A DNA stretch of 64,000 nt from a virus: the UHGV virus genome UHGV-0036384, one strand, 5' to 3'. Both the position numbers and the translations under genes were made by a program. This document shows, piece by piece, positions 34,789 to 57,263 of this stretch. The notes beneath the pieces are model-generated. The model saw only the letters and a list, made by a program, of their open reading frames with translations. It had not been told where the DNA came from and did no database searches. Each line of letters opens with the position of its first letter. Positions within the stretch are counted from its first letter, which is position 1.

Positions 34789-35486
34789 AGATTGCTTTAG
34801 TTCTTCGCTCTGGTGGTGACTATAACGCTTCCGATGTGCAGTGGCTGGTTAATCAACTGCCAAAAGACTATGAAATTATTTGCCTGACAGACCTGAAGTG
34901 TTTACATGTACCTGGCGTCAAAGTTATCCCATTGATCAACCAGTGGCAAAAGTGCCGTGGCTGGTGGGCGAAAATCGAGTTGTTCCGACCGGATATAACC
35001 GATGATCTGTTCTATCTGGATTTGGACACGGTTATTGCCGGTGATATACGCCCAATCCTAGAGCATCCACCAACCAGCTTCACCATGCTTAGGGATTTTT
35101 ACCATCCACAATATCGTGGTAGCGGTGCCCTGTGGATACCAAATAGTGTTAAAGCGCATATCTGGAGTTCATTCTGGCAAGATCCGGAAGGTTGGATTTC
35201 TCGTTGTGTCACTACTGAGTGCTGGGGTGACCAGGGGTTCTTACGAAAGGTTATGGGCGATGATACACCAGCATTTCAGGATCTGTATCCAGGATGGTTT
35301 GTAAGTTACAAGGCCGATGTTGTGGAACCTGGTTCAAAATATGCGAGCGCGCGTTACTCCAGGGGGAATGGGGCATTACCAAAAGACTGCCGAATAATCT
35401 TTTTCCACGGCAAACCGCGACCTCGCGAAGTGTCAGAGGATTGGCTCCCCCTTATCAGCTCATTTTTTGAGCGAGAATCAGAATAA
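34785..35486 (+). CDS. GT-A-like glycosyltransferase candidate
   Basis: 233 aa; DxD-type motif FYLDLDTVI after Rossmann-like N-terminus. Confidence 0.4.
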
Positions 35487-35487
35487 T

Positions 35488-35555
35488 ATTGCTCTAATAA
35501 TTCCATATTTTTAAAACGTGATGTACACTCATCACGTTTTTTATTAGAGCAATCT
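35488..35555. promoter_or_regulatory. pair of inverted C1 operator-like sites bracketing a terminator hairpin
   Basis: attgctctaataattcc (35488-35504), hairpin aaaacgtgatg-tacactc-atcacgtttt (35513-35540), inverted ttattagagcaat (35541-35553). Confidence 0.5.
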
Positions 35556-35567
35556 ACAAGGTGCACT

Positions 35568-35786
35568 ATGTGGCCATTCCGACGGAAATATCACTACTGG
35601 CTGATCGCCTTTGTTACGCCGACCGGCGGTATCAGGCATGTCATCACCAGGTATCGCAACAAGAGACTCACCTTAGCCAGAATTTTACAGGCTGCCATAG
35701 GTGAGGGACTGGATACAAATTGCGTAGTCCTTCCTCCTTCATACTTAGGAAAAATGACCGAAGCACAAGCTAATACGGAACTTTGA
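35568..35786 (+). CDS. small hypothetical protein
   Basis: 72-aa ORF. Confidence 0.35.
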   Translation: MWPFRRKYHYWLIAFVTPTGGIRHVITRYRNKRLTLARILQAAIGEGLDTNCVVLPPSYLGKMTEAQANTEL

Positions 35787-35787
35787 A

Positions 35788-37050
35788 ATGATCACTTCAG
35801 CACAAAACCAATCAATCGAAAATGTATCTATCCCTGACGTCCTGAATGCCGGTATCCCGGCCATTATCCAGAACATCCGGGCCGCGCAACGCCGCGTTAG
35901 TTGTGATGACCTCACAGCGCGTTTTTTTGATAATGCGGTTCAGTCAGCGGAGATGCTTCACGCACAGCTTATTGATGTTTATAACGCAGAAGCTGATAGC
36001 CATAACTCCCTGGTAGATGCAGCTGAAAATATGCAGTTGGATCTCGGTCTGAAGGGTAAAGAAATTGAAGAGCTTCAGCTACAAATTGAACATTTGAAAC
36101 GCCAGCAACAGGACGCGATCGACAATGCGACGCATGACGCCAACCAGCGTGCTGATAATGCCGAACGTATAAGCATTGAGCTGGAAACAAAACTCAATGA
36201 AATGACCGCGATGGTTGAACTGCGGAACTCACAGATTTCAACGCTAAAATCTCAATATAAAGAGATCATGAAACTTGATCCTTTTAACCTTGAGAAACGC
36301 TATAACAAAGCTAAAAGCGAGCGACAGGAACTGCGTAAGCAGGTCGCCGACCTTAACCAACAGCTCAAAAAAACTATTAAAGATGCAAGCGAAGCGCGCG
36401 TGGCATTTGCTAATAAAAAAGCAGAGGTTACCGCGCTGGTTAATGAGAATGCCAAATTTGCGACGCTCAAGAAGGAAATGTATGGCATTACTGAGCGCCG
36501 TTTCCCTGCAAGCAAACTTCATCCGACGTTAGGGCAAATCTCCTTCTTCCCGCGCCTCCTGGCTTATGGGATCTCATCGCCTAAAGAGTTCAATAACGAG
36601 CGTCCTTATATCGTTTCTAAGCTGGACTTTGCTTATCAGTTCTGCTGCGACATGGGCTATGCCATTGATATCCGAATCAACGAATGGTTGATGCCAAACT
36701 TCCAGCCGTTGGCAATTTTCCGCGAGTTCCAGCCGGAAGGTTGGGTAGAGTTCTTCCATGAATTGATCTGTAAAGAGATGGAAAGCCGCCGCCCGGAATT
36801 GGTCCGTCGAGTTGAGTGGGCGCAAGAGGTTATGTTGGCAGATGCAGAGCTGCCGTTCGAACCGGAATTCATTGATGATCTGGCAACTAAAGGGTTGCAT
36901 ACCCTGTTTGATGTGGTTACCCGCCGTCATGAGCAGTTGGTTGTCGAATTGGGTTTAGAGGAAACAGCGGCAAGAAGACTTCTCGATGTTTGCTATGCAC
37001 GTAGCGATGCATGGGAAAAAGAGAACGGCGGCACTATTTACGTCCGCTGA
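35788..37050 (+). CDS. coiled-coil protein
   Basis: 420 aa with long heptad-like charged stretch. Confidence 0.5.
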   Translation: MITSAQNQSIENVSIPDVLNAGIPAIIQNIRAAQRRVSCDDLTARFFDNAVQSAEMLHAQLIDVYNAEADSHNSLVDAAENMQLDLGLKGKEIEELQLQIEHLKRQQQDAIDNATHDANQRADNAERISIELETKLNEMTAMVELRNSQISTLKSQYKEIMKLDPFNLEKRYNKAKSERQELRKQVADLNQQLKKTIKDASEARVAFANKKAEVTALVNENAKFATLKKEMYGITERRFPASKLHPTLGQISFFPRLLAYGISSPKEFNNERPYIVSKLDFAYQFCCDMGYAIDIRINEWLMPNFQPLAIFREFQPEGWVEFFHELICKEMESRRPELVRRVEWAQEVMLADAELPFEPEFIDDLATKGLHTLFDVVTRRHEQLVVELGLEETAARRLLDVCYARSDAWEKENGGTIYVR

Positions 37051-37122
37051 TAGTTACAGCGTCACTTTTAATGCTGGTGGAGTGCGCCCACCAGCATTTT
37101 TTTCGTCCAATGAGGAGGGCAT

Positions 37123-37629
37123 TTGAGTATTTTCAATAAACACGCACACCAGGAACGTCCGTATATCGTCATAGTCGATATTGATGGAACAATATCAGAG
37201 GCAACTGAAGACAGACTGCATTTGCTTCCGCCACCAGGTAAAGGTGCATTAACAAAGGACTGGAACGAGTTTAATCTCGCCTGTGACACCGATACTCCCA
37301 TCACTCCGGTTATTGATATGGTGCGCCAGTTATTTAACGTTTACACGGTCTGGTTTGTAACCGGGCGCTGTGAGATCGCAAGGGATAAAACACGAGCCTG
37401 GCTGCGGAAGTACGTAACAAACGGGGCTGAGCCTTTGCTATCTATGCGTCCTGCCACCGATGACAGAAATGACGGTCCAGCAAAGATTGATCTCCTGAAG
37501 AAAATTGGTCTAAGTAAAATTGCGTTCGCGCTGGAAGATAAGATTGAAGTGGCGCGTGTTTTCAGGAGTCACGGCGTACTTACGTTAATGGTCAGGGAGT
37601 ATGAAAACGCGCTTCTCCACCAACAATAA
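37123..37629 (+). CDS. HAD-like phosphatase
   Basis: 168 aa; DxDGT motif VIVDIDGTI near N-terminus. Confidence 0.5.
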   Translation: MSIFNKHAHQERPYIVIVDIDGTISEATEDRLHLLPPPGKGALTKDWNEFNLACDTDTPITPVIDMVRQLFNVYTVWFVTGRCEIARDKTRAWLRKYVTNGAEPLLSMRPATDDRNDGPAKIDLLKKIGLSKIAFALEDKIEVARVFRSHGVLTLMVREYENALLHQQ

Positions 37630-37646
37630 TTGCTCTAATAAATATT
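37629..37646 (+). promoter_or_regulatory. C1 operator-like site
   Basis: attgctctaataaatatt. Confidence 0.45.
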
Positions 37647-37727
37647 GATTTTTAAAACAGAGAAAGTGAAAATAAAAACATGCCGCAAGGCGCGGCATGT
37701 ATCCAATCAATCACAGGAGCTGAAAAT

Positions 37728-37814
37728 ATGAACACGGCATTCAAAATCATTATGGCCGCGATCTATTTCTGGCTGTTCTCTATCACTTTTGGCGGCATCG
37801 TCGCGCATGGGTAA
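37728..37814 (+). CDS. 28-aa hydrophobic peptide
   Basis: MNTAFKIIMAAIYFWLFSITFGGIVAHG; RBS caggagc 8 nt upstream. Confidence 0.3.
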   Translation: MNTAFKIIMAAIYFWLFSITFGGIVAHG

Positions 37815-37823
37815 GGGGGATGC

Positions 37824-38552
37824 ATGAAAGGCGAAGTGAAAGAGCGCGGCATGATTTTCAACGATGAGATGGTCCGAGCCATCCTCGAAGGAAGGAAAAC
37901 GCAGACGCGGCGGATAATGAAAAATCAGCCTGCGGAAGTTGGTCCAGAAGCACCAGTGATGGTTAGGGAAATTGGTGCAGGTTTTCAGTGGTACGGGGCT
38001 GATGGTGTAAGCAGTGTTTTCAATTGCCCCTTTGGTATCGTCGGCGATCGAATTTGGGTTCGTGAAACATGGGCGATATTAGGCAATGAAGATGGTTGCA
38101 GTGTGGACTGGAACGACAACCTTTGTCGTGGCGATGAGAAGAACGCAGCAAGGATTTATCGGGCCAGTTGTGAGCAAAAGCCTGGTGATTACGGTTTATG
38201 GTCGATACCCGATGATGCCGACTGGAAACCTCACACTGTGAATGAAAAGTTTGATGGTGGGTGGCGTCCATCAATTCACATGCCGCGATGGGCATCACGC
38301 ATCCTGTTGGAAATTACCAACGTGCGCGTTGAGCGGTTGAACGATATCAGCGAATGCGATGCAAGGGATGAGGGCGTTCCGCCTGCTGGAAGTTTGCTTC
38401 CTGATCACCCGGGAACATTCCTTACTCCCAAGGGGGATTTCGCAATGGCCAAGGTTGCGTTCCAGCGTCTGTGGGAATCCATCTATGGTGAAGAAAGCTG
38501 GAACGCTAATCCCTGGGTGTGGGTAATCGAGTTTAAGCGCATTCAGGAATAA
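37824..38552 (+). CDS. hypothetical protein
   Basis: 242 aa; RBS taaggggga upstream. Confidence 0.5.
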   Translation: MKGEVKERGMIFNDEMVRAILEGRKTQTRRIMKNQPAEVGPEAPVMVREIGAGFQWYGADGVSSVFNCPFGIVGDRIWVRETWAILGNEDGCSVDWNDNLCRGDEKNAARIYRASCEQKPGDYGLWSIPDDADWKPHTVNEKFDGGWRPSIHMPRWASRILLEITNVRVERLNDISECDARDEGVPPAGSLLPDHPGTFLTPKGDFAMAKVAFQRLWESIYGEESWNANPWVWVIEFKRIQE

Positions 38553-38635
38553 ACCGTGAGTATGCATCAAATCGTCAGTTTTTCAGGTGGACGAGCATCG
38601 GCCTGTCTCGTTCATCTGTTCGAATAGGTAGTGGC

Positions 38636-38839
38636 ATGACAATCGTAAAAACCCATACCGGCACCGTGATCACCAAAGACGGTCCGCAGGTAAAAAAACT
38701 GCACCAAACAGAGCGGATGTGGGTCGTCGGCAAAAACGAGTTTTACCACAAAGAAACTGGACGCCGCCATTTTGCAGAAAATACGCGCCGCCGACTGCTG
38801 TTAGACACCATCAAGCCTATCGAGGTGAAGCATGTTTAA
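38636..38839 (+). CDS. small basic protein
   Basis: 67-aa ORF. Confidence 0.35.
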   Translation: MTIVKTHTGTVITKDGPQVKKLHQTERMWVVGKNEFYHKETGRRHFAENTRRRLLLDTIKPIEVKHV

Positions 38840-39071
38840 ACAGAACGAAAAGGCTATCGCTCAAATTGCTGATTATATCCCGCGTGCGTGCCGGGGTATG
38901 CAGTTGCAGGAAGCCAAAGCGCGCCTGGAGAAAAAAATTGCGCTCTATATTGATGACGGCTGTGATGCTGCTGTTCTTAACGCAGCGTTCGCGCCAGCTC
39001 TTAACAGTCATACGCGGGAGTCTTTTTTTTCGCGCATCGCAGCGCAGATCCGTAAAGGAGGCAACCAGTGA
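38832..39071 (+). CDS. small protein ending in QIRKGGNQ
   Basis: 79 aa; 3' end shares the aaaggaggcaaccagtgagc junction with next gene. Confidence 0.4.
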   Translation: MFKQNEKAIAQIADYIPRACRGMQLQEAKARLEKKIALYIDDGCDAAVLNAAFAPALNSHTRESFFSRIAAQIRKGGNQ

Positions 39072-39793
39072 GCGAAATTAACTATAAAGAACTGCGCGAG
39101 GCGGCGAAACAGGCAACGCAAGATGAATGGGTAGCATATATTTTGCCGGGTCATAACGGCATTTATCCTGCGCGCACGTCTGAGGGTAGGCATTGCGGAT
39201 ACTTTATTGACTGGCCTAGCGTCTGTCAGGGGCGGGAGAGCATCAACATGAGCATCAGAACCTACGCAGTGAATTGCAATGACGCATGGCTAAACACCGA
39301 AGGTGATGACATCTCCGGCTCATACGTTAAGTACAAAGACCATCAGGAAGTGGTTGCCGCTCTTGAGGCCAAGTGCGCGGCGCTGGCGGCGGAGAATGAG
39401 CTGGCTCGTAAGGCAGTTCAGGCATTCTGCGATGTTGTTGGCGACAACACCGAGGTTATCGCTGAGGAGGTTGGGCGAGATGGCGTTCTGGTTATTTTGG
39501 GGGCCATGAAGGCAACAGGAAATATTTCAGCCACCGATGCTTTTCTGGCTGAAATTCGTGCGGAAGCACGCAACGAGGGGATTAACTATACCGCCAGCCG
39601 TCTTGCTGCTGCGTTCAATCACGGATTTATCAATAAGTCTTTGCGTGAAGTTTTCGACGTTACGCGCATGATTCTGTCAGCGAAAGAAGAGTTGGCTAAT
39701 GAACCGTACCCGATTGATGGCCTGTCCGGTGAATATGCGGAGAAATCCCTTGAAGAATGGGCGGAACAGATTCGCAAAGGAGGCAACCAGTGA
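39068..39793 (+). CDS. Ead/Ea22-like protein, paralog 1
   Basis: GTG start; N-terminus SEINYKELREAAKQATQDEW; ends QIRKGGNQ. Confidence 0.5.
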   Translation: MSEINYKELREAAKQATQDEWVAYILPGHNGIYPARTSEGRHCGYFIDWPSVCQGRESINMSIRTYAVNCNDAWLNTEGDDISGSYVKYKDHQEVVAALEAKCAALAAENELARKAVQAFCDVVGDNTEVIAEEVGRDGVLVILGAMKATGNISATDAFLAEIRAEARNEGINYTASRLAAAFNHGFINKSLREVFDVTRMILSAKEELANEPYPIDGLSGEYAEKSLEEWAEQIRKGGNQ

Positions 39794-40488
39794 GCAAGAT
39801 TGACTATCAGGTACTGCGTGAAAAGGCAGAAAAAGCAACGTGTGGTGAGTGGTCTCTCGAATATGGAGAGAGCCGATTTGATGGTGATGATGCACTAATT
39901 CATCGTGAAGTTGCTGGATATATTCCCATTTGCAGAATTGAAGGAGCGCATCCAGAAAGCCGTTTCTATGAAGATTTCCAAATGGAGCAGCAGGCCAATG
40001 CTGAATTCATCGCCGCAGCCAATCCAGCTACCGTGCTGGCACTGCTGGATGAACGGGAAAGAAACCTGCAATACATCAAAAGCCGCGATCAGGAGAACGA
40101 GGATATTGCGCTTACGGTTGGGAAGCTGAGAGTTGAGCTTGAGGAGACAAAATCAAAACTCAACGAGCAGCGTGAGTATTACGAAGGTGTTATCTCGGAT
40201 GGGAGTAAGCGCATTGCTGAACTAGAGGAGCGGGAAATAAAACCAGCCAAAGGTGAAGTTCTGGTCGTTGTATCTGGTTTTACTGGTTGCGGAAAAAGCG
40301 CCATTGCCGGGGAAATAGAAATCGCGATGAAGGCTATTGGTGTACCGGTTAAGTGGACTAATGGCGATGCAGAAAAGCGCATGACTGGCGCTGACTGGCT
40401 GACTGCGATTGAGATGTACAAACCAACTGTGCGCATCGTGGAAGTTAATGTGCCACGCGCCCCTGGCATTCGCATCAAAGGAGAGTGA
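39790..40488 (+). CDS. Ead/Ea22-like protein, paralog 2
   Basis: GTG start overlapping previous stop (GTGA); N-terminus SKIDYQVLREKAEKATCGEW. Confidence 0.5.
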   Translation: MSKIDYQVLREKAEKATCGEWSLEYGESRFDGDDALIHREVAGYIPICRIEGAHPESRFYEDFQMEQQANAEFIAAANPATVLALLDERERNLQYIKSRDQENEDIALTVGKLRVELEETKSKLNEQREYYEGVISDGSKRIAELEEREIKPAKGEVLVVVSGFTGCGKSAIAGEIEIAMKAIGVPVKWTNGDAEKRMTGADWLTAIEMYKPTVRIVEVNVPRAPGIRIKGE

Positions 40489-40489
40489 T

Positions 40490-40699
40490 ATGGCTATCGC
40501 TGCAAGTTACACCATGCATCTCTATTGTGACTGCCGCCAGTGTACGGAAGGTGTATATCCAGTGCCAGACTTCGGTGAGTATATCGGTACGTCATGGTCT
40601 GGTTGTGCAAAAGAGGCCCGTAAAGACGGGTGGCGAATAAGTAAAGACAAAACACGTGCTTTTGCGCCCGGGCATAAAGTTTTGAGGATTAACAAATGA
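40490..40699 (+). CDS. small Cys-rich protein
   Basis: 69 aa from ATG 40490 with aaaggagag RBS; CDCRQC motif. Confidence 0.4.
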   Translation: MAIAASYTMHLYCDCRQCTEGVYPVPDFGEYIGTSWSGCAKEARKDGWRISKDKTRAFAPGHKVLRINK

Positions 40700-41871
40700 C
40701 CACTATTACCAAAGAACGTATCGAATTATTCATTAAAAATCCGCTTGATAACGGGCTTACCCGTGGCGAACAAATGGAACTGGCACGAATTGCACTGGCC
40801 TCGCTTGAGGCAGAGCCAGTTGGTGCATTCCACATTGCTGAACAGCAAGTTGACGGCACAAGTGACTACATCAAGGATGGAGAGTGGCCTATTGATAATG
40901 GGATTATTGAAGTCTACGCCGCTCCGCCAGTACCGGTAGTACCTGCTGCATTACCTGAGAACGACGATGAGGACGGGCATGACATTGATTATCTTGAGCC
41001 ATCTGAAGTTTACGCGCTTGGGCGAACAGCTGGATGGAACGCCTGCCGCGCCGCCATGCTTCAGTCCGGAAACTTTCGGGAAAACAAGAATTCGTCAACC
41101 AATAATTTTCGGGAAATCGCGGAAACGTCAACCAACTATCCGGTAATTCCTAGTGAGGTGTTGTCCGCAATCCTGAAGGTTGCCAAGATTCGTGCCGATT
41201 TCGATGATTTTGACGGTGACAGGCGAGGTATCGGTGATTGTCTGGATGAGGCTGAGCAAGAGCTTATCGTTACCATTAACAAATATGCCAGTCAGTTGGC
41301 AGCAGAACCGATAGCGACTAATGACGTTCGAGAGCAAACAGCCGTTCCGCCAATACAGGCTGATGTCGCGCAAGCAATTGAAAATCTCAAGCAGAAGTTA
41401 GTGGAATGCAATCGCTATAACTACTGCGCAGATGCAGTGAAGAACGTAGAGGATGCCTGCCGTGCTGTTAGCTATAGCCAAGCCGACAATCAGCCAGCAT
41501 CTGGCAACCAGGCTGCCGAATCCAATCGCGGTAATGAGTGGACTGGCAATCCTGATATTGATAACGCCATCATCATGCTCGACCGCATAGATACGCTGGA
41601 AAATTGCGATGATGACCGTATTGAGGCTGTTAAGGCTGTTTTGCGTAGACTGGCTGGCAACTCTCCGGTAACTCCGGATAGTTGGATAAGCTGTAGTGAG
41701 CGAATGCCCGCTCAAGATGATTGGATTTTAATTTATTCAAAGCACGGCGAGTATATGGCAGGCCAGGTGCAAGGGGAATACGTGGAGTTGAGCGACGGCA
41801 CTTTATCGTGGTTAGGGAACGCCTTGTTCTGGATGCCGCTACCAGAACCGCCGCAGGAGGTGAATCAATGA
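40696..41871 (+). CDS. hypothetical protein with DUF551-like C-terminus
   Basis: 391-aa ORF; C-terminal DSWISCSERMP...WMPLPEPP. Confidence 0.5.
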   Translation: MTTITKERIELFIKNPLDNGLTRGEQMELARIALASLEAEPVGAFHIAEQQVDGTSDYIKDGEWPIDNGIIEVYAAPPVPVVPAALPENDDEDGHDIDYLEPSEVYALGRTAGWNACRAAMLQSGNFRENKNSSTNNFREIAETSTNYPVIPSEVLSAILKVAKIRADFDDFDGDRRGIGDCLDEAEQELIVTINKYASQLAAEPIATNDVREQTAVPPIQADVAQAIENLKQKLVECNRYNYCADAVKNVEDACRAVSYSQADNQPASGNQAAESNRGNEWTGNPDIDNAIIMLDRIDTLENCDDDRIEAVKAVLRRLAGNSPVTPDSWISCSERMPAQDDWILIYSKHGEYMAGQVQGEYVELSDGTLSWLGNALFWMPLPEPPQEVNQ

Positions 41872-41951
41872 GCTGGCCTGAAGCATTCACCACGGTAGGA
41901 ATTGTGATGGCGGCAGCACTGGGTTTGTATTCAATTTGTCGCTGGTGGTAA
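41868..41951 (+). CDS. 27-aa hydrophobic peptide, translationally coupled
   Basis: MSWPEAFTTVGIVMAAALGLYSICRWW; ATG overlaps upstream stop (ATGA); gcaggagg RBS. Confidence 0.3.
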   Translation: MSWPEAFTTVGIVMAAALGLYSICRWW

Positions 41952-42187
41952 CGATGGGAAAAATAACTTTTGTAGTCGAATTTGAGGATGGCAAAGAGCC
42001 ACCTGTTAGCGCCAATCTTGATGTTGCTGGTGGCAGGCTTGTTTCGGTTCTATTTGGTGACTACCGAGATGACTTCTTCCAACCAGAAGAAGTTGATGTA
42101 GTGCGAGAGGCATTAAACGAGTTAAGTGTTGATAACGATGATGCTCATGCGGAAATCATCCAAAAAATGGAACTGCTAACTCACTAA
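41936..42187 (+). CDS. small acidic protein
   Basis: 83-aa ORF. Confidence 0.4.
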   Translation: MSLVVTMGKITFVVEFEDGKEPPVSANLDVAGGRLVSVLFGDYRDDFFQPEEVDVVREALNELSVDNDDAHAEIIQKMELLTH

Positions 42188-42235
42188 ATTATCAATTATG
42201 GTGCTATCACCTACGACACCGAGAGAAAATTTATA

Positions 42236-42358
42236 ATGTCAAAAGTAAATGTTTTGATTTTTTCAGCAATTGTTGGCTTTGGTTTTACTGCCGGAGTGCA
42301 GATTTATATTACGTGGGAAAAAATCATCAACTACGCATGGAGTTGTTTTATTAAGTGA
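42236..42358 (+). CDS. 40-aa membrane peptide
   Basis: MSKVNVLIFSAIVGFGFTAGVQIYITWEKIINYAWSCFIK in AT-rich island. Confidence 0.3.
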   Translation: MSKVNVLIFSAIVGFGFTAGVQIYITWEKIINYAWSCFIK

Positions 42359-42365
42359 GGTAAGT

Positions 42366-42659
42366 ATGTGGAGAGGTAATAGTCATGGCAAAAGCCAGAT
42401 GATACTTACCGAATATCAGTTTGACCATAAAACCAATAAATCACGTTCAGTATATTTGCTTCGGCACAATAGCCGCGTAAGGAATACCGTGCTGGAGCAA
42501 AATCTGACTGTTGAAATAGATAATTACGGGGGCTTCAAGCCAACAATTTCGCTTGATGATTTTCCTCGTGGTTTAAGCGAAAGAGAAGCAATGCTGAAAT
42601 TAGCAGAATGGCTACAAAGATTAAGCATTGCTATTGAAGATAACTGGTCTGAACCTTAA
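42366..42659 (+). CDS. hypothetical soluble protein (AT-rich island)
   Basis: ATG 42366 after taagtgagg RBS; 98 aa. Confidence 0.4.
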   Translation: MWRGNSHGKSQMILTEYQFDHKTNKSRSVYLLRHNSRVRNTVLEQNLTVEIDNYGGFKPTISLDDFPRGLSEREAMLKLAEWLQRLSIAIEDNWSEP

Positions 42660-42665
42660 ATTTAT

Positions 42666-43040
42666 ATGATGACACTAAAACATTTTCTTGACCGCCCATT
42701 ATGGGCGGCAGCCGCAGGCTATGACTTTAATTATATGGATTGCATGTCTTATACCGCCAATGCATACGACTATTCCTTCAGTCTGCTGCTTAATTCTTTA
42801 AGAATATTGCCGCAAACAGAAGTTGGAGAGCTTCATTTATGGCTATTGGGCTTTATCGCGGCTGGAGTTGGTATTGCTGTATGGCCTTTTATTTTCTGGC
42901 TGGTGGCTGTTGTAGTGTGGTTTAAGTGCAAGACGTACCGGAGAAAGTATTTCTTAGGTGATGGAATGACTGATATTGCCAAAATGAACATTGAAAGATG
43001 GACTAAGGAATGTGAAAAGAAATGGCGCAAAAAGAAATGA
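42666..43040 (+). CDS. membrane protein (two TM helices, basic tail)
   Basis: 124 aa; LWLLGFIAAGVGIAVWPFIFWLVAVVVWF. Confidence 0.45.
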   Translation: MMTLKHFLDRPLWAAAAGYDFNYMDCMSYTANAYDYSFSLLLNSLRILPQTEVGELHLWLLGFIAAGVGIAVWPFIFWLVAVVVWFKCKTYRRKYFLGDGMTDIAKMNIERWTKECEKKWRKKK

Positions 43041-43954
43041 CCAGAATCACTGAAGAGCGTATATCAGAGATTATTTCCCGTATCGAAATGTATGGTCACG
43101 GTGCTGGATATACGGCAGATGAAGTATTGGCACTTGCCCAAATGGCTTTGGCGGCTTGCAAAGATGATAAAAAAATGAAGTTTATCGACTTGTTAGTGAA
43201 GGAACTGCCTAAGTGCGGCGGGTGGCCTGATGGAATGAGTTATTGTTACCTACCCAGTGTCAATTTAATGGCACCATGCGCGACTTTTGCTTTTGGCTCA
43301 GACCACAAAAAAGACACTTTCTTTGGGCGCAATTTTTGTTGTGAGATTGAGCTTCCAATTGGTGACCTTGATAGCGATGAATACCAGTCAGTTGTCACTC
43401 GCGAACAATACGAATCAGCTCTCATAGCGTCGCAGAAAGTCGAGTTCAATGGTGATGAACTTGAAAGTAAGACTTACAGGTTGGATTTTGGGCAATGGCT
43501 GGAACAGCAACGCGGGAAAATCGATGTGGACTGTGGTTGTGTGTCCACTGAAACATTCATGCACTGGCTGCGGGTAGCTTACGAGGCTGGCAACTATCCG
43601 GATATTCCGGATAGTTCGGTGCCAGCACCAGGAAAGGGCGTCACCGGTGAACGTATCCGAATTAAGCCGCATGTTTATCGCGAACTGGTTAACCGTCTCC
43701 ACGATACAGCGATCAAGTGTGCTGGCACCCAGCAATTACGAGAAAGAATTAGCCGTGTTTTGGGCGACGTTATTACACCAGATCATCATAAACAAGCCGA
43801 GAAAAGTGGCCTGGAAAGGTGTCACCTTGAGGCGGCATTAAACATTAAGCCGGGGCATACGCTTGGCATTATTGATGCACTATTGGTTCATAAGATGGCC
43901 AGGGCTTTATTGCCGCTGGTGGATGCTGGCGATACAAGCGAGGGTGAAGTATGA
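43022..43954 (+). CDS. hypothetical protein
   Basis: 310-aa ORF. Confidence 0.5.
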   Translation: MAQKEMTRITEERISEIISRIEMYGHGAGYTADEVLALAQMALAACKDDKKMKFIDLLVKELPKCGGWPDGMSYCYLPSVNLMAPCATFAFGSDHKKDTFFGRNFCCEIELPIGDLDSDEYQSVVTREQYESALIASQKVEFNGDELESKTYRLDFGQWLEQQRGKIDVDCGCVSTETFMHWLRVAYEAGNYPDIPDSSVPAPGKGVTGERIRIKPHVYRELVNRLHDTAIKCAGTQQLRERISRVLGDVITPDHHKQAEKSGLERCHLEAALNIKPGHTLGIIDALLVHKMARALLPLVDAGDTSEGEV

Positions 43955-44313
43955 GAGTTGCAGATCACATCAAACACCTTGAAAGAATTATCGAAAACGG
44001 TGAACTCTTAAGAGATCAGATGAGACGCACGGCAGAAGTCAGAGAGGCGATAATCCGCAGTCAGGCTGGTAAATTAAAGCAATTATCAGAGATTAACGCG
44101 CTATACAAGAACAGACGTAACCGGGCGGCGCTGCGGCTTCAGAAAGCACGTAATGAAATTAAATTGGTGGAGGCAAAACTGAAAAAACAGATTCAGCGTT
44201 ACGATCAGCAAGATGCTTTTTATGCCGCCATCAAGGCGGCTGCTAATGAAATAGGCATCTGGAAGTTGCTGGTGGAGAAAGCAAAGACGAAGTTAAATGC
44301 CAACGAAAGCTGA
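43951..44313 (+). CDS. coiled-coil protein
   Basis: 120-aa ORF, overlapping start. Confidence 0.45.
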   Translation: MRVADHIKHLERIIENGELLRDQMRRTAEVREAIIRSQAGKLKQLSEINALYKNRRNRAALRLQKARNEIKLVEAKLKKQIQRYDQQDAFYAAIKAAANEIGIWKLLVEKAKTKLNANES

Positions 44314-44387
44314 ACTACAGGTACCCACCAGCACATACAGAAAATGATTGTTTCCACATCAAGGAGATTTTAATGTTTCACTGAACA

Positions 44388-44525
44388 TTAAGTAAGCCAG
44401 TGCATAATTCCATTTTTTACTGACCTTAAAAGCAAAATCAAAACGATGATGAGGATGATCGCCAGAATCTGGCTAATAACAGGCGCATCTAAAAATGCAC
44501 TCAGGAACTGAAAAAAAGCAGTCAT
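44388..44525 (-). CDS. 45-aa hydrophobic peptide (possible small membrane toxin / holin-like)
   Basis: MTAFFQFLSAFLDAPVISQILAIILIIVLILLLRSVKNGIMHWLT; alone on minus strand in AT-rich ORF-poor region. Confidence 0.3.
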   Translation of the reverse strand: MTAFFQFLSAFLDAPVISQILAIILIIVLILLLRSVKNGIMHWLT

Positions 44526-44974
44526 TAAGGTGGTTCCTTGTCAAATGTAAAGGAGCACTTGCTCACGTTGACGTAGAAACCCAACCCCTATATAGTTGGA
44601 TTCGGTGAAAGAAAGTCGTTAACGTGAGCTTACGGCACATGTTTTCGGAACAACATCAGGGAACGGCTAATTCCTTGATGCGGATGGGGTCTGTAATGCA
44701 GACCCTATCTATTAACGTCATGATTGCATCTCAAATTTTCTCCTTATCTTCATTAATCAAAATTCATTTCATTTGTGAAACATCACAATATTTAGAAAAT
44801 GGCCCTCTTGCAAGTGCATAACTTTGTGGATAAATCAGGAAGAAAAAAGTTGATTCTGCGCACGGCAAGGCAGATAAGCTGTGCACAAAAATCAATGGGA
44901 AAAGAAAAAAAATTAAAAGTTACTTTGCTGGTTAAATAATAGTCGTTACGCAATTGTTCTGGATGGGATTTGAT

Positions 44975-45226
44975 ATGCACGATTGGAATATTGCAGCTAA
45001 AAGTCAGGAAGAACGGGATAAGGTTAACGTTGATCTGGCTGCCAGCGGTGTGGCGTACAAAGAGCGATTGAACATACCTGTCATAGCTGAACAGGTAGCC
45101 CGCGAGCAACCAGAGAATCTGCGCACCTATTTCATGGAACGGTTACGGCACTATCGGCAGTTAAGCCTCCAGTTGCCAAAAGGGAGCGATCCGGTGTATC
45201 AGAACGAGGATGCACCAAAAAAATAA
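44975..45226 (+). CDS. hot: Hot, homolog of DNA polymerase III theta subunit
   Basis: [36 protein letters not shown] closely resembles E. coli HolE. Confidence 0.7.
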
Positions 45227-45311
45227 CGGCAAGATGGGGGAGAAATGTGATTAGCCCCCAGCGTGGCGCGCCTACAAACCCCGCTTTCACAAACTATGCC
45301 TTTTCAATGTA

Positions 45312-51849: not shown

Positions 51850-51943
51850 TGATCCTCCTCCAGAATTGACATGGCCAACAACTCACAGCGGATTACACTG
51901 GGAGTTGTTGGCCACCATTATAGAAGGATCCAACGAAAATAAT

Positions 51944-52507
51944 AGATTTATTAGTGCATTTATTGTGAGTCTGGCTGGTTAGTGGCCATGAGATATTCGA
52001 TTGTGTCAGTGAGATCATCCAGGTCGTCTTGGGTGATGCGGTACTCCTGATTGGATATCTTTGAGTAGTGTTCAGCAATGGCGCGGGCAGCGTCGGTTTC
52101 GGCGGGGTCTACAGATAAAGCGTTAGAGCAATGTCTAACGTCGTCGATGGTTGGTGGAATGAAAGCCATAATTATGCCTCACTGTATTGACAACACAGAG
52201 CCTGAAGCTCTGACCTACTGTTTCACCCATGATCCATGCTGGGGTAATCTAACAACATTGCGCTGTGTGTAAGATGAGCAATGCATAGCTGTAATGCCGT
52301 TGTATAAGGTTTCCCTGTTTGCTCATTTCCTTCTGAGCCGCTCTACAACGCTGAAGACACATTAAATAGTGAATCCAAAGTCGTATTACGAAACGGCGGC
52401 AAAACTATAATTTATTAGAGCAATTGTCAAACAACTATGAAAAACAATCCAGTTTTTGGCTGGTGGAGTGGGATTTTTCTCTCAAAATTTATTGCTCTAA
52501 TAATTCT
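51944..52507. promoter_or_regulatory. immC operator cluster (Op99-like multiple C1 sites)
   Basis: Sites at 51944-51959 (-), 52409-52424 (-), 52491-52507 (+). Confidence 0.5.
51960..52169 (-). CDS. coi: Coi, C1 inactivator
   Basis: 69-aa ORF MAFIPPTIDDVRHC..., upstream of c1. Confidence 0.8.
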   Translation of the reverse strand: MAFIPPTIDDVRHCSNALSVDPAETDAARAIAEHYSKISNQEYRITQDDLDDLTDTIEYLMATNQPDSQ

Positions 52508-55391: not shown

Positions 55392-56033
55392 ATGGATAAG
55401 AAAATATGCGTTGTGTCGATGAGCGTCGGCAAACCGGCGTCAATGACTGCTGCATGGATCAATAACGAGCTGATAATGGCTGAGCGGACCAGCTACCCTG
55501 AACGCCGCCGCGATATGGAACTCCAGCTGCTGCGCGAATTGCGAGAAAAAGAGGAAAAGGGTTTTATCGTGCTGGTGGAAGAGGAAAACAGCTTTATTAC
55601 TGGTCGAGTTGGCCAGCGTGTAAGGTTGCGCGATCCCTTCATGAACGGCAGGCCGGTACTAATTGAGGCAATGCAGATTTATAAGGAGCTGGAACGCCAG
55701 AAAGCAATCAAGTTACCGCGCAAGGAATCCGGCAAATACATTCTCCACCAAAGCATCTTCGATTCCGAACACGATAAAAAAGGCGATGAATTTTTCAACA
55801 TCAACTGGAGCGAAATAACGACAGAGCATGTTCTGACGTTACTATGTTGCTTTGCGACGGAATACAACAACGTTGCCAGCGCCGACTACATCAGGGCAAT
55901 GGCTGGAGAAGTTGAGGCCCGCCAAGAACCATCGTTACTAAGTCCACTGATTAACATAATTCTGGGCACCCAGATACTGGAACAAAAAAAAGTGCCGAAA
56001 GGGGTATTAACAGGCAAGCATAATTATTTTTAA
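55392..56033 (+). CDS. Mat-like protein (particle maturation)
   Basis: 214-aa ORF after ref. Confidence 0.45.
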   Translation: MDKKICVVSMSVGKPASMTAAWINNELIMAERTSYPERRRDMELQLLRELREKEEKGFIVLVEEENSFITGRVGQRVRLRDPFMNGRPVLIEAMQIYKELERQKAIKLPRKESGKYILHQSIFDSEHDKKGDEFFNINWSEITTEHVLTLLCCFATEYNNVASADYIRAMAGEVEARQEPSLLSPLINIILGTQILEQKKVPKGVLTGKHNYF

Positions 56034-56126
56034 CAATTACATACAGTAATTTTGTGGTTACATTCTCCATTGATTTTCTAACCGCTTTATCATTAGATGT
56101 AACAGCATGTAAATCATTTAAAATGG

Positions 56127-57263
56127 ATGAAAGCAATGGGGAATGAAGTTTATCAAAGTCAAAAATGCAAGTTGAAATATTCAAAATCTCAAATTGATAG
56201 GGCTGCTCAATTGATAAGGCACGGGTGTAGTGACGAAGAAAGGCAGCAATCTATTGAAATGATACAAAATTTCCGTGAGCTGCATCTTTATCCATTAATG
56301 CTCATGAAAAATCATTTAGCAAGAGCAGCTGCTAAGGTTGACAAGGACAAAAAGATTCTCGTTGCAAGAAGACTTAAGCGACTTTCTACCATAATAGATA
56401 AACTAGAGCGTCCTAGTCTTGATGGAGGCAGAACTAGCAATGCAATTAAATTAACACGGATGCAGGACGTTGGCGGATGTAGGGCCATTGTCAGAAACTT
56501 AGACCAGTTGATACAGCTAAAGGAACGTCTTTTAAAAAGCAAATCTGTTCATAGGATTGTTAAAGAGTATGATTATCTTACTCCCAAAGACAGCGGCTAT
56601 AGTGGAATCCACCTTGCATACAGTTGCTTCGATCAGAAAGAGGATCAATATCCGTGGCGAAAAACAAAGATTGAGATACAGTTAAGAACTCAATTGCAGC
56701 ATGCTTGGGCTACCAGCCTTGAAATAATTGATACCCTTGAAGGTATCAAGCTGAAAACTTCAAGTGAAGGGCATCCAGAATGGAGACGATTTTTCTATCT
56801 AGCCGGATGTCTTGTAGCGCACGACGAAAAAGCCTGCACTCTTGATGAGCTAGTTGTATCTCAGTATGAAGGCGAGCTTAAAGAGCTGGAACGGACTTTA
56901 TCTGTACGGAGGAAACTAAGCACATACACCATCGCCTTAAATTTAACTTCTGACGCGAATTTGATTAAGAAGTTGCCAAAAAATCATAAGGGGCATTACT
57001 TAGTAACAATGAGAAATGCAGAAAACAAGCCCAATACAAAAAACAAAAAAATGTTCCTAGTGTCTGTTCGCGCATTTAAAACAAAAGAAGCAGATGAAGC
57101 CCTTGAGGCCTTAAATAAAGACGATTCTAATCCTAATGTATTGATATCTGTTCTCGTTGCTACAGATAACATTAAGTCACTAAAAAAAGCCTACCCCAAC
57201 TATTTTGGCTCAACAAACCAGTTTACAAAATTCTTAGATAAGCATCTTCGTAACGAAGGATAG
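56127..57263 (+). CDS. fused toxSAS toxin-antitoxin candidate (RelA/SpoT-domain, CapRel-like)
   Basis: 378 aa; all four synthetase motifs in order (RLKRLSTIIDKLER, DVGGCRAIV, GYSGIHLAY, EIQLRTQLQHAWA); Lys-rich C-terminal ~170 aa; AT-rich; occupies P1 res-mod position. Confidence 0.75.
   Translation: MKAMGNEVYQSQKCKLKYSKSQIDRAAQLIRHGCSDEERQQSIEMIQNFRELHLYPLMLMKNHLARAAAKVDKDKKILVARRLKRLSTIIDKLERPSLDGGRTSNAIKLTRMQDVGGCRAIVRNLDQLIQLKERLLKSKSVHRIVKEYDYLTPKDSGYSGIHLAYSCFDQKEDQYPWRKTKIEIQLRTQLQHAWATSLEIIDTLEGIKLKTSSEGHPEWRRFFYLAGCLVAHDEKACTLDELVVSQYEGELKELERTLSVRRKLSTYTIALNLTSDANLIKKLPKNHKGHYLVTMRNAENKPNTKNKKMFLVSVRAFKTKEADEALEALNKDDSNPNVLISVLVATDNIKSLKKAYPNYFGSTNQFTKFLDKHLRNEG

Follow-up and report, generated by a model that had tools for sequence, protein, structure and literature searches.

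The DNA analysed here, referred to below as the window, is a stretch of 64,000 nucleotides from a P1-like phage-plasmid. The region shares 99.9% identity with Escherichia phage vB_EcoM-813R1 and 98% with Salmonella phage SJ46, two members of the genus Punavirus. Between pap and the hot/humD/phd-doc genes lies an AT-rich stretch with three small genes, named A, B and C here, and the features in and around it are as follows.

37629-37645, + strand: C1 repressor operator, the equivalent of P1 OpmgT (formerly Op88), directly after the pap stop codon and with one mismatch to ATTGCTCTAATAAATTT.
37630-37673, + strand: predicted sigma-70 promoters P2pmgT/P1pmgT, overlapping the operator; positions transferred from the NC_005856 annotation.
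37728-37814, + strand: ORF for a 28-aa hydrophobic leader at the start of the operon, MNTAFKIIMAAIYFWLFSITFGGIVAHG.
37824-38552, + strand: gene for a 242-aa protein, residues 1-232 of which correspond to residues 1-232 of P1 PmgT (99% identity by tblastn).
38519-43578, no strand assigned: mosaic array of early accessory genes of lambdoid/N15 type, absent from reference P1 (blastn against NC_005856).
41954-42187, + strand: up77, gene for a 77-aa acidic protein (phrog_3876, PHROG E = 6e-53), forming one exchangeable block with A.
42236-42358, + strand: A, gene for a 40-aa membrane peptide with a single predicted transmembrane (TM) segment (phrog_5525, PHROG HMM E = 1e-24).
42366-42659, + strand: B, gene for a 97-aa soluble protein (phrog_1258, PHROG HMM E = 3e-49).
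42666-43040, + strand: C, gene for a 124-aa membrane protein, predicted to be single-pass (phrog_2638, PHROG HMM E = 2e-62).
43022-43954, + strand: gene for a 310-aa protein, overlapping the 3' end of C by 19 nt; its last 111 residues are P1 PmgU, in frame.
43951-44313, + strand: pmgV, the last gene of the co-directional array, 100% identical to P1 PmgV.
44917-44940, + strand: late promoter LPhot, downstream of the array, with the -22 box AAGTTACTT and a -10 box (NC_005856 annotation).

The GC content of positions 42236-43040 is 0.390, compared with 0.480 for the whole window, and falls in the lowest 1% of 805-bp windows. The original prediction, made from the sequence alone, had described a stretch more AT-rich than its flanks, and the windowed GC comparison confirmed this and supports a compositionally foreign stretch. 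The true extent of the dip is about 41900-43100, which takes in the upstream gene up77 (GC 0.43). Successive sub-blocks of the 5-kb array have GC contents of 0.51, 0.49, 0.40 and 0.46, and the AT-rich part of the array is confined to 41.9-43.1 kb. Homologues of B in N15 and phiKO2, and of A in a lambdoid phage, have GC contents of about 0.48-0.50, which indicates that AT-richness is a trait of the A and B alleles found here and not of the A and B families. The composition of these two alleles suggests import from a lower-GC gene pool. Homologues of C range from 0.33 to 0.48. Comparable AT-rich patches (GC below 0.42 in 805-bp windows) are present elsewhere in the window, at 1-400, about 10850-11150, 44150-44400, 51850-52350 and 55550-56650.

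The three gene products agree largely with what had been predicted. A encodes 40 residues with one hydrophobic segment, as expected, and would be an inner-membrane peptide. A lambdoid phage encodes, after its ea22 gene, a peptide 48% identical to A that keeps the pattern GFGxxAG...YITW..IN.AWS, while the DNA is only 56% identical. Such conservation at the protein level shows that A is a real small gene. The dN/dS test was not usable for A, as there is too little variation among the P1-like copies; for the neighbouring up77 it gave 0.05-0.09.

A peptide of 40 residues with one TM segment would also suit a type I toxin controlled by an antisense RNA, and two weak promoter-like sites on the minus strand (42427-42399 and 42391-42363) could drive antisense transcription. 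Promoter-like matches in the region are at chance level, however, and a search of 37-46 kb against Rfam (E ≤ 1) found no family there, giving nothing but a sub-threshold GcvB match elsewhere. No known type I toxin or antitoxin family was matched by A in Rfam or Pfam. In addition, A ends 7 nt upstream of B within an operon and is not a stand-alone locus. It is highly improbable, then, that A is a type I toxin or, given its protein-level conservation after ea22 genes in lambdoid phages, that it is not a gene at all. Other small hydrophobic ORFs occur in the operon region: besides the 28-aa leader, there is one of 27 aa at 41868-41951 (+), overlapping the DUF551 stop codon (ATGA) at the site occupied by eaa in relatives, and one of 45 aa at 44388-44525 (-) that is annotated in SJ46.

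B, predicted as a soluble protein of 98 aa, has 97 residues (98 codons including the stop) and no hydrophobic segment, and is a homologue of N15 gp44 and phiKO2 gp43. Its first 12 residues are conserved and its ATG is preceded at a distance of 5 nt by a GAGGT Shine-Dalgarno sequence, which the stop codon of A overlaps. The conserved N-terminus and the ribosome-binding site support the 97-aa form as the right start. Many gene callers give B 125-140 aa by using upstream TTG or other starts that overlap A in another frame (proteins P0001-P0009 and others); a 129-aa version would occupy 42270-42659 in the window, and RefSeq calls an 86-aa form in SJ46. In the structural model of B (pLDDT 86) a long C-terminal helix comes after four antiparallel strands, and the invariant residues lie mostly within and just before this helix. 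B would be a small cytoplasmic protein of beta-sheet-plus-helix type, with the C-terminal helix as its putative conserved surface. When P1-like copies are compared, B has a dN/dS of 0.08-0.33 and C one of 0.31-0.37. Both are thus under purifying selection and, with their PHROG matches, are real genes.

For C, the predicted length of 124 aa, membrane nature and basic tail were all found, but the two TM helices were not. The protein has a 31-residue uncharged core (residues 56-86), and in the AlphaFold2 model (pLDDT 91) one continuous helix, residues 53-96, holds the whole hydrophobic stretch; the remainder consists of short N-terminal helices, a helix at 23-46 and a C-terminal helix. Over 29 members of the family the median length of the uncharged core is 30 residues; the flank on its N-terminal side is net acidic (mean K+R 1.8, D+E 2.9) and that on its C-terminal side is basic (K+R 4.7, D+E 1.9). 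Flanks of opposite charge around one continuous helix make it most likely that C is single-pass, with one long TM helix oriented N-out/C-in, and correct the earlier count of two. One TM segment is therefore predicted in each of A and C. The conserved, acidic N-terminal domain of about 55 residues would probably be periplasmic and the basic tail probably cytoplasmic.

The C family is small: at 50% identity, 1.84 billion proteins yield 34 clusters of it. A search of the genome collection with a shallow C alignment gave a single locus. The most conserved part of the family is an N-terminal motif, F-x3-P-x2-A-x3-GY-x5-D, in which F7, P11, A14, G18, Y19 and D25 are invariant or nearly so. One allele (P0126, 81% identical) differs by an apparent compensating pair of frameshifts that spans the TM segment. 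The substituted residues remain hydrophobic, and the alternative peptide is encoded in the window by a +2-frame ORF at 42823-42915. The C protein of plasmid ET896 shows two gaps in the alignment.

Neither single-sequence nor profile searches of Pfam, NCBIfam and the PDB produced a meaningful match to A, B or C. Foldseek searches of BFVD returned one significant match each for B and C, in both cases an unnamed protein (28-32% identity across the two) that is presumably a family member.

The trio lies within a larger segment that reference P1 does not have. Alignment with blastn showed that window 35001-38518 corresponds to P1 81665-85182 and window 43579-45229 to P1 85182-86833, so that there is a single clean breakpoint at P1 nt 85182, inside pmgT, where the window has 5,060 bp that are missing in P1. 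Two Ead/Ea22 genes and one DUF551 gene are among the contents of this array. In the window the 242-aa gene has a normal end and the 310-aa gene continues in frame into the sequence annotated as pmgU in P1, whereas P1 "pmgT" reads out of frame across the junction. With full-length, in-frame flanking ORFs here and an out-of-frame pmgT tail in P1, classical P1 looks like a deletion derivative in which pmgT and pmgU would be the remnants of a 5-kb deletion, a point of possible use to users of the P1 reference annotation. A repeated motif of about 18-32 nt, GGCTGGCAACTATCCGGATATTCCGGATAGTT, encoding AGN(Y/S)P(D/V)(I/T)PDS, was seen at 41133-41150, 41652-41683 and 43585-43616, that is, twice in the DUF551 gene and once precisely at the right-hand junction of the 5-kb segment. 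The motif may serve as a recombination linker between modular genes of the Ea/DUF551 type.

Matches to the AT-rich stretch were found in 309 of 5,426 complete E. coli genomes, at 318 places of which 314 are on plasmids, and 266 E. coli genomes contain at least 80% of the stretch. The P1 core gene pmgS is present in 674 of the complete E. coli genomes, which puts P1-like elements in about 12% of them. Part or all of the stretch accompanies pmgS in 309 of these 674, or about 46%, which is a lower bound set by the sensitivity of megablast. Its presence in nearly half of these elements and its absence from reference P1 show that it is variable among P1-like genomes. One 245.8-kb plasmid, NZ_CP100885.1, holds a P1-like region together with the stretch and is far bigger than a P1-like genome; it is possibly a cointegrate.

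This variability agrees with published work on the region. Eight hypervariable regions have been described in P1-like phage-plasmids, one of which ("variable region 8") spans pmgT to humD, and the variable regions are associated with low GC (PMC9603915). P1-like elements swap many genes with other mobile elements, about 30% per element having been recently exchanged (PMC10879196), and all of the P1 genes tested between pap and doc are non-essential for lytic growth (PMC10695390). Absence from P1, variable presence and the non-essential nature of the P1 genes in this slot suggest that A, B and C are likewise dispensable for lytic growth.

The small acquired three-gene cassette that had been proposed stood in part. 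The foreign composition, the three proteins and the variable presence were all found, but the trio divides into two blocks, and outside P1-like elements the three genes are found apart from one another. The match to RCS47 runs exactly from 42360 to 43041 and takes in B and C, with boundaries at the gene edges; RCS47 has eaa and an ASCH-domain gene in place of up77 and A. Homology with SJ46 begins at 41942, and the exchange junctions are 41942, 42360 and 43041. Among 75 IMG/VR loci encoding C, all 72 P1-like ones have B upstream, preceded either by up77 and A or by eaa and the ASCH-domain gene; up77 is always found together with A, and in three of these P1-like loci a 54-aa gene separates B from C. 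The 3 of the 75 that are not P1-like have C by itself, about 57% identical. Among E. coli plasmids B also occurs without C, and one plasmid has only a 3' remnant of C. The exact coverage of B and C in RCS47 and the arrangements in IMG/VR show that the trio is made up of two exchangeable blocks, [up77-A] and [B-C], and is not one cassette. A search for repeats turned up none on the flanks, direct or inverted, that would hint at transposition.

Elsewhere the three genes have the company of early genes. A is found after ea22/eaa genes. Relatives of B are N15 gp44 and phiKO2 gp43, and others are encoded by P22-like phages, in the nin region, and by Proteus phages. For C, the N15-like early-right operons have the order Q, RdgC, RNase T, C, Dam, DinI, which places the gene between an RNase T-type exonuclease and Dam. 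C also occurs in a nin region from Klebsiella, a Yersinia phage and Proteus Gorganvirus phages; in the last it is among the replication genes, flanked by a helicase/exonuclease and a primase. Homologues of all three are thus located in repressor-controlled early operons of other temperate phages. Several loci (L010 and L012, 6001-6378 and downstream, and L005) have a DNA methyltransferase gene close by: the C homologue of N15-like phage-plasmids overlaps the start of the Dam methyltransferase gene, with DinI following, C is one gene from Dam in Yersinia phage P840, and the B homologue of phiKO2 comes directly after a DNA methyltransferase gene. A lysis-cassette setting was never seen for A or C; their neighbours everywhere are early, replication or recombination genes. 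A role for either as a holin, antiholin or spanin was rejected, no endolysin-adjacent lysis cassette being present in any context.

The window was scanned with the C1 operator consensus of P1, and 15 matches were found (e.g. at 2795, 17911, 21433, 37629 and 52408) where 0.3 were expected. The core of this consensus is the most repeated 10-mer in the window; other top repeated 10-mers are ATGTGTGCTGGAGGG, which we take to represent RepA-type iterons, and the Chi sequence GCTGGTGG, with about 9 copies. SJ46, RCS47 and plasmid ET896 have the operator of 37629-37645 at the corresponding position. NC_005856 annotates this site as OpmgT/Op88, and over 60 nt there the window and P1 differ by a single nucleotide. 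P1pmgT and P2pmgT are predictions in the NC_005856 record, carried over to a near-identical sequence in the window. The 28-aa leader ORF that follows has an identical, unannotated counterpart in reference P1, and in SJ46 it falls within an annotated "membrane protein". Just past the operator and promoters, in what would be the 5' leader of this operon, there is a perfect 8-bp GC-rich hairpin without a T-run (37679-37699, CATGCCGC-AAGGC-GCGGCATG).

Downstream of the operator as far as 44313, every gene is on the + strand, separated from the next by a short gap or overlapping it, and the trio lies 4.6 kb downstream of OpmgT/Op88. Promoter-like and terminator-like sites are not enriched in the region, and there is no promoter-like site on the + strand in 41.9-43.1 kb. 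No exact late -22 box occurs within the array, the only one nearby being that of LPhot at 44917; the -22 boxes were taken from the NC_005856 annotation and only exact matches were counted, one-mismatch matches being at chance level. A de novo motif search in the window did not recover the P1 late-promoter motif, and the main text of the P1vir RNA-seq paper makes no mention of the pmgT operon.

With no promoter or terminator of their own and a C1 operator upstream, A, B and C probably owe their transcription to PpmgT, which C1 would shut off in the lysogen, and would be expressed early once the phage infects or is induced. Such timing agrees with the early operons that house their homologues. 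This timing is deduced from the operator, the promoters predicted in the reference and the lack of consensus signals near the genes. Weak internal promoters can escape a consensus scan in AT-rich DNA, so A, B and C may be expressed to some extent in the lysogen.

The original prediction had likened the trio to the superinfection-exclusion or abortive-infection modules of prophages, and the evidence did not support this part of it. Such a module, expressed by the prophage and shielding the lysogen from other phages, would fit with two of the three products being small (predicted) membrane proteins and with the block being AT-rich and variably present, and variable regions of P1-like elements do bear defence functions elsewhere, such as res-mod and simABC (PMC9603915). 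PADLOC (E ≤ 1), however, gave no match for A, B, C or the flanking genes, save chance-level matches on pmgV, and the Pfam, NCBIfam and PDB searches described above likewise found no defence or exclusion family. Such a module would also be expected to be active in the lysogen, and the probable repression by C1 of an operon in which these genes have no promoter or terminator of their own would not fit with this. Furthermore, the genes are separable, and other phages have them singly in early lytic operons, one such place being the replication genes of Proteus Gorganvirus phages. A prophage-expressed exclusion or abortive-infection role is, on these grounds, quite improbable.

The association of B with C raises another possibility: that the two are a functional pair acting early in the lytic cycle, with C as membrane anchor or sensor and B as its soluble partner, and with A as unrelated cargo. 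The pair might, for example, block DNA entry by secondary phages in the manner of T4 Imm and Sp, or counter an envelope-associated host defence. B is immediately upstream of C in 72 of the 75 C-encoding IMG/VR loci, and the two move as one 682-bp block. C has no Shine-Dalgarno sequence and starts 6 nt past the B stop codon, which would couple its translation to that of B; this coupling, along with no C having been seen without B in P1-like elements, could mean a functional pair. The strongly conserved and probably periplasmic N-terminal domain of C would also suit such a role. Outside P1-like elements, however, C never adjoins a B homologue. The genes upstream of C in the Yersinia, Proteus and N15-like phages matched B with an hhalign probability of about 1% or less, and N15 gp45, which lies downstream of a B homologue, is unrelated to C. 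The ideas that hidden relatives of B stand upstream of C, or that gp45 is a hidden relative of C, were rejected, all comparisons being negative. P1-like plasmids with B and without C exist, and another gene can be inserted between the two. As the neighbours elsewhere are unrelated, the linkage of B and C within P1-like elements is as expected from common descent of the 682-bp block, and common descent alone predicts linkage within one lineage. We therefore think a functional B-C pair rather unlikely. The more specific proposal, that B and C form a new early-lytic membrane module of phage-plasmids in which the periplasmic motif of C and the coupled B block DNA entry or a host defence, is a doubtful one to which we give little weight, and the tests reported here gave no specific pointer to an exclusion role of C in lytic growth.

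The explanation that we favour, and consider moderately probable taken as a whole, is that the AT-rich stretch is mosaic early accessory cargo in the operon of the pmgT slot, under the control of C1. It would be the low-GC part of a 5.06-kb mosaic early accessory array, of the kind found in lambdoid ea/nin regions and the early-right region of N15, and the array would fill the pmgT slot of the P1-like phage-plasmid, i.e. hypervariable region 8 (pap to hot). Within it [up77-A] and [B-C] would be independently exchangeable. The genes would be read through as part of a long co-directional operon from PpmgT, and tight translational coupling is suggested by the A stop codon lying in the ribosome-binding site of B, the lack of such a site for C and the overlap of C with the next gene. 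They would most likely be off in the lysogen and on early after infection or induction. A, B and C would then be dispensable cargo, perhaps modulating the host envelope or a host factor in early lytic development.

On present evidence the import of this is small. It gives a tidier annotation of a common accessory block of P1-like phage-plasmids and places the block in a predicted C1-repressed early operon and not among prophage defence genes. Of most interest are the C family, small as it is, and the possibility that C pairs with B; if C or the pair acts on the envelope, they would represent a small new family of early host-manipulation or exclusion proteins of temperate phages.

These genes can be compared with several known systems. 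T4 Imm and Sp and HK97 gp15 are small phage-made inner-membrane exclusion proteins, the T4 ones being made early in the lytic cycle. C resembles them in being small, phage-made and, as predicted, located in the inner membrane, but this is a functional analogy only: no similarity of sequence or fold was detected, and C has no known exclusion phenotype. The closest families are phrog_5525 for A, phrog_1258 for B and phrog_2638 for C, with full-length HMM matches; all three are annotated as of "unknown function". Variable region 8 is the same slot and has the same variability and the same association with low GC, while A, B and C individually, their OpmgT context and the 5,060-bp breakpoint in pmgT are not described in that work (PMC9603915). 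The accessory genes of the lambdoid ea/nin and N15 early-right regions differ from those in the window in two respects: here they belong to a P1-like phage-plasmid with control by C1 at OpmgT instead of a lambda-type pL/pR arrangement, and the alleles are unusually AT-rich compared with B of N15 and phiKO2 and the lambdoid A. In other ways the likeness is close. Those genes too are small, tightly packed, co-directional, transcribed early under repressor control and swapped at gene boundaries, the neighbours in the window are Ead/Ea22 and DUF551 proteins, and it is in exactly these ea/nin and early-right regions that the homologues of A, B and C are found.
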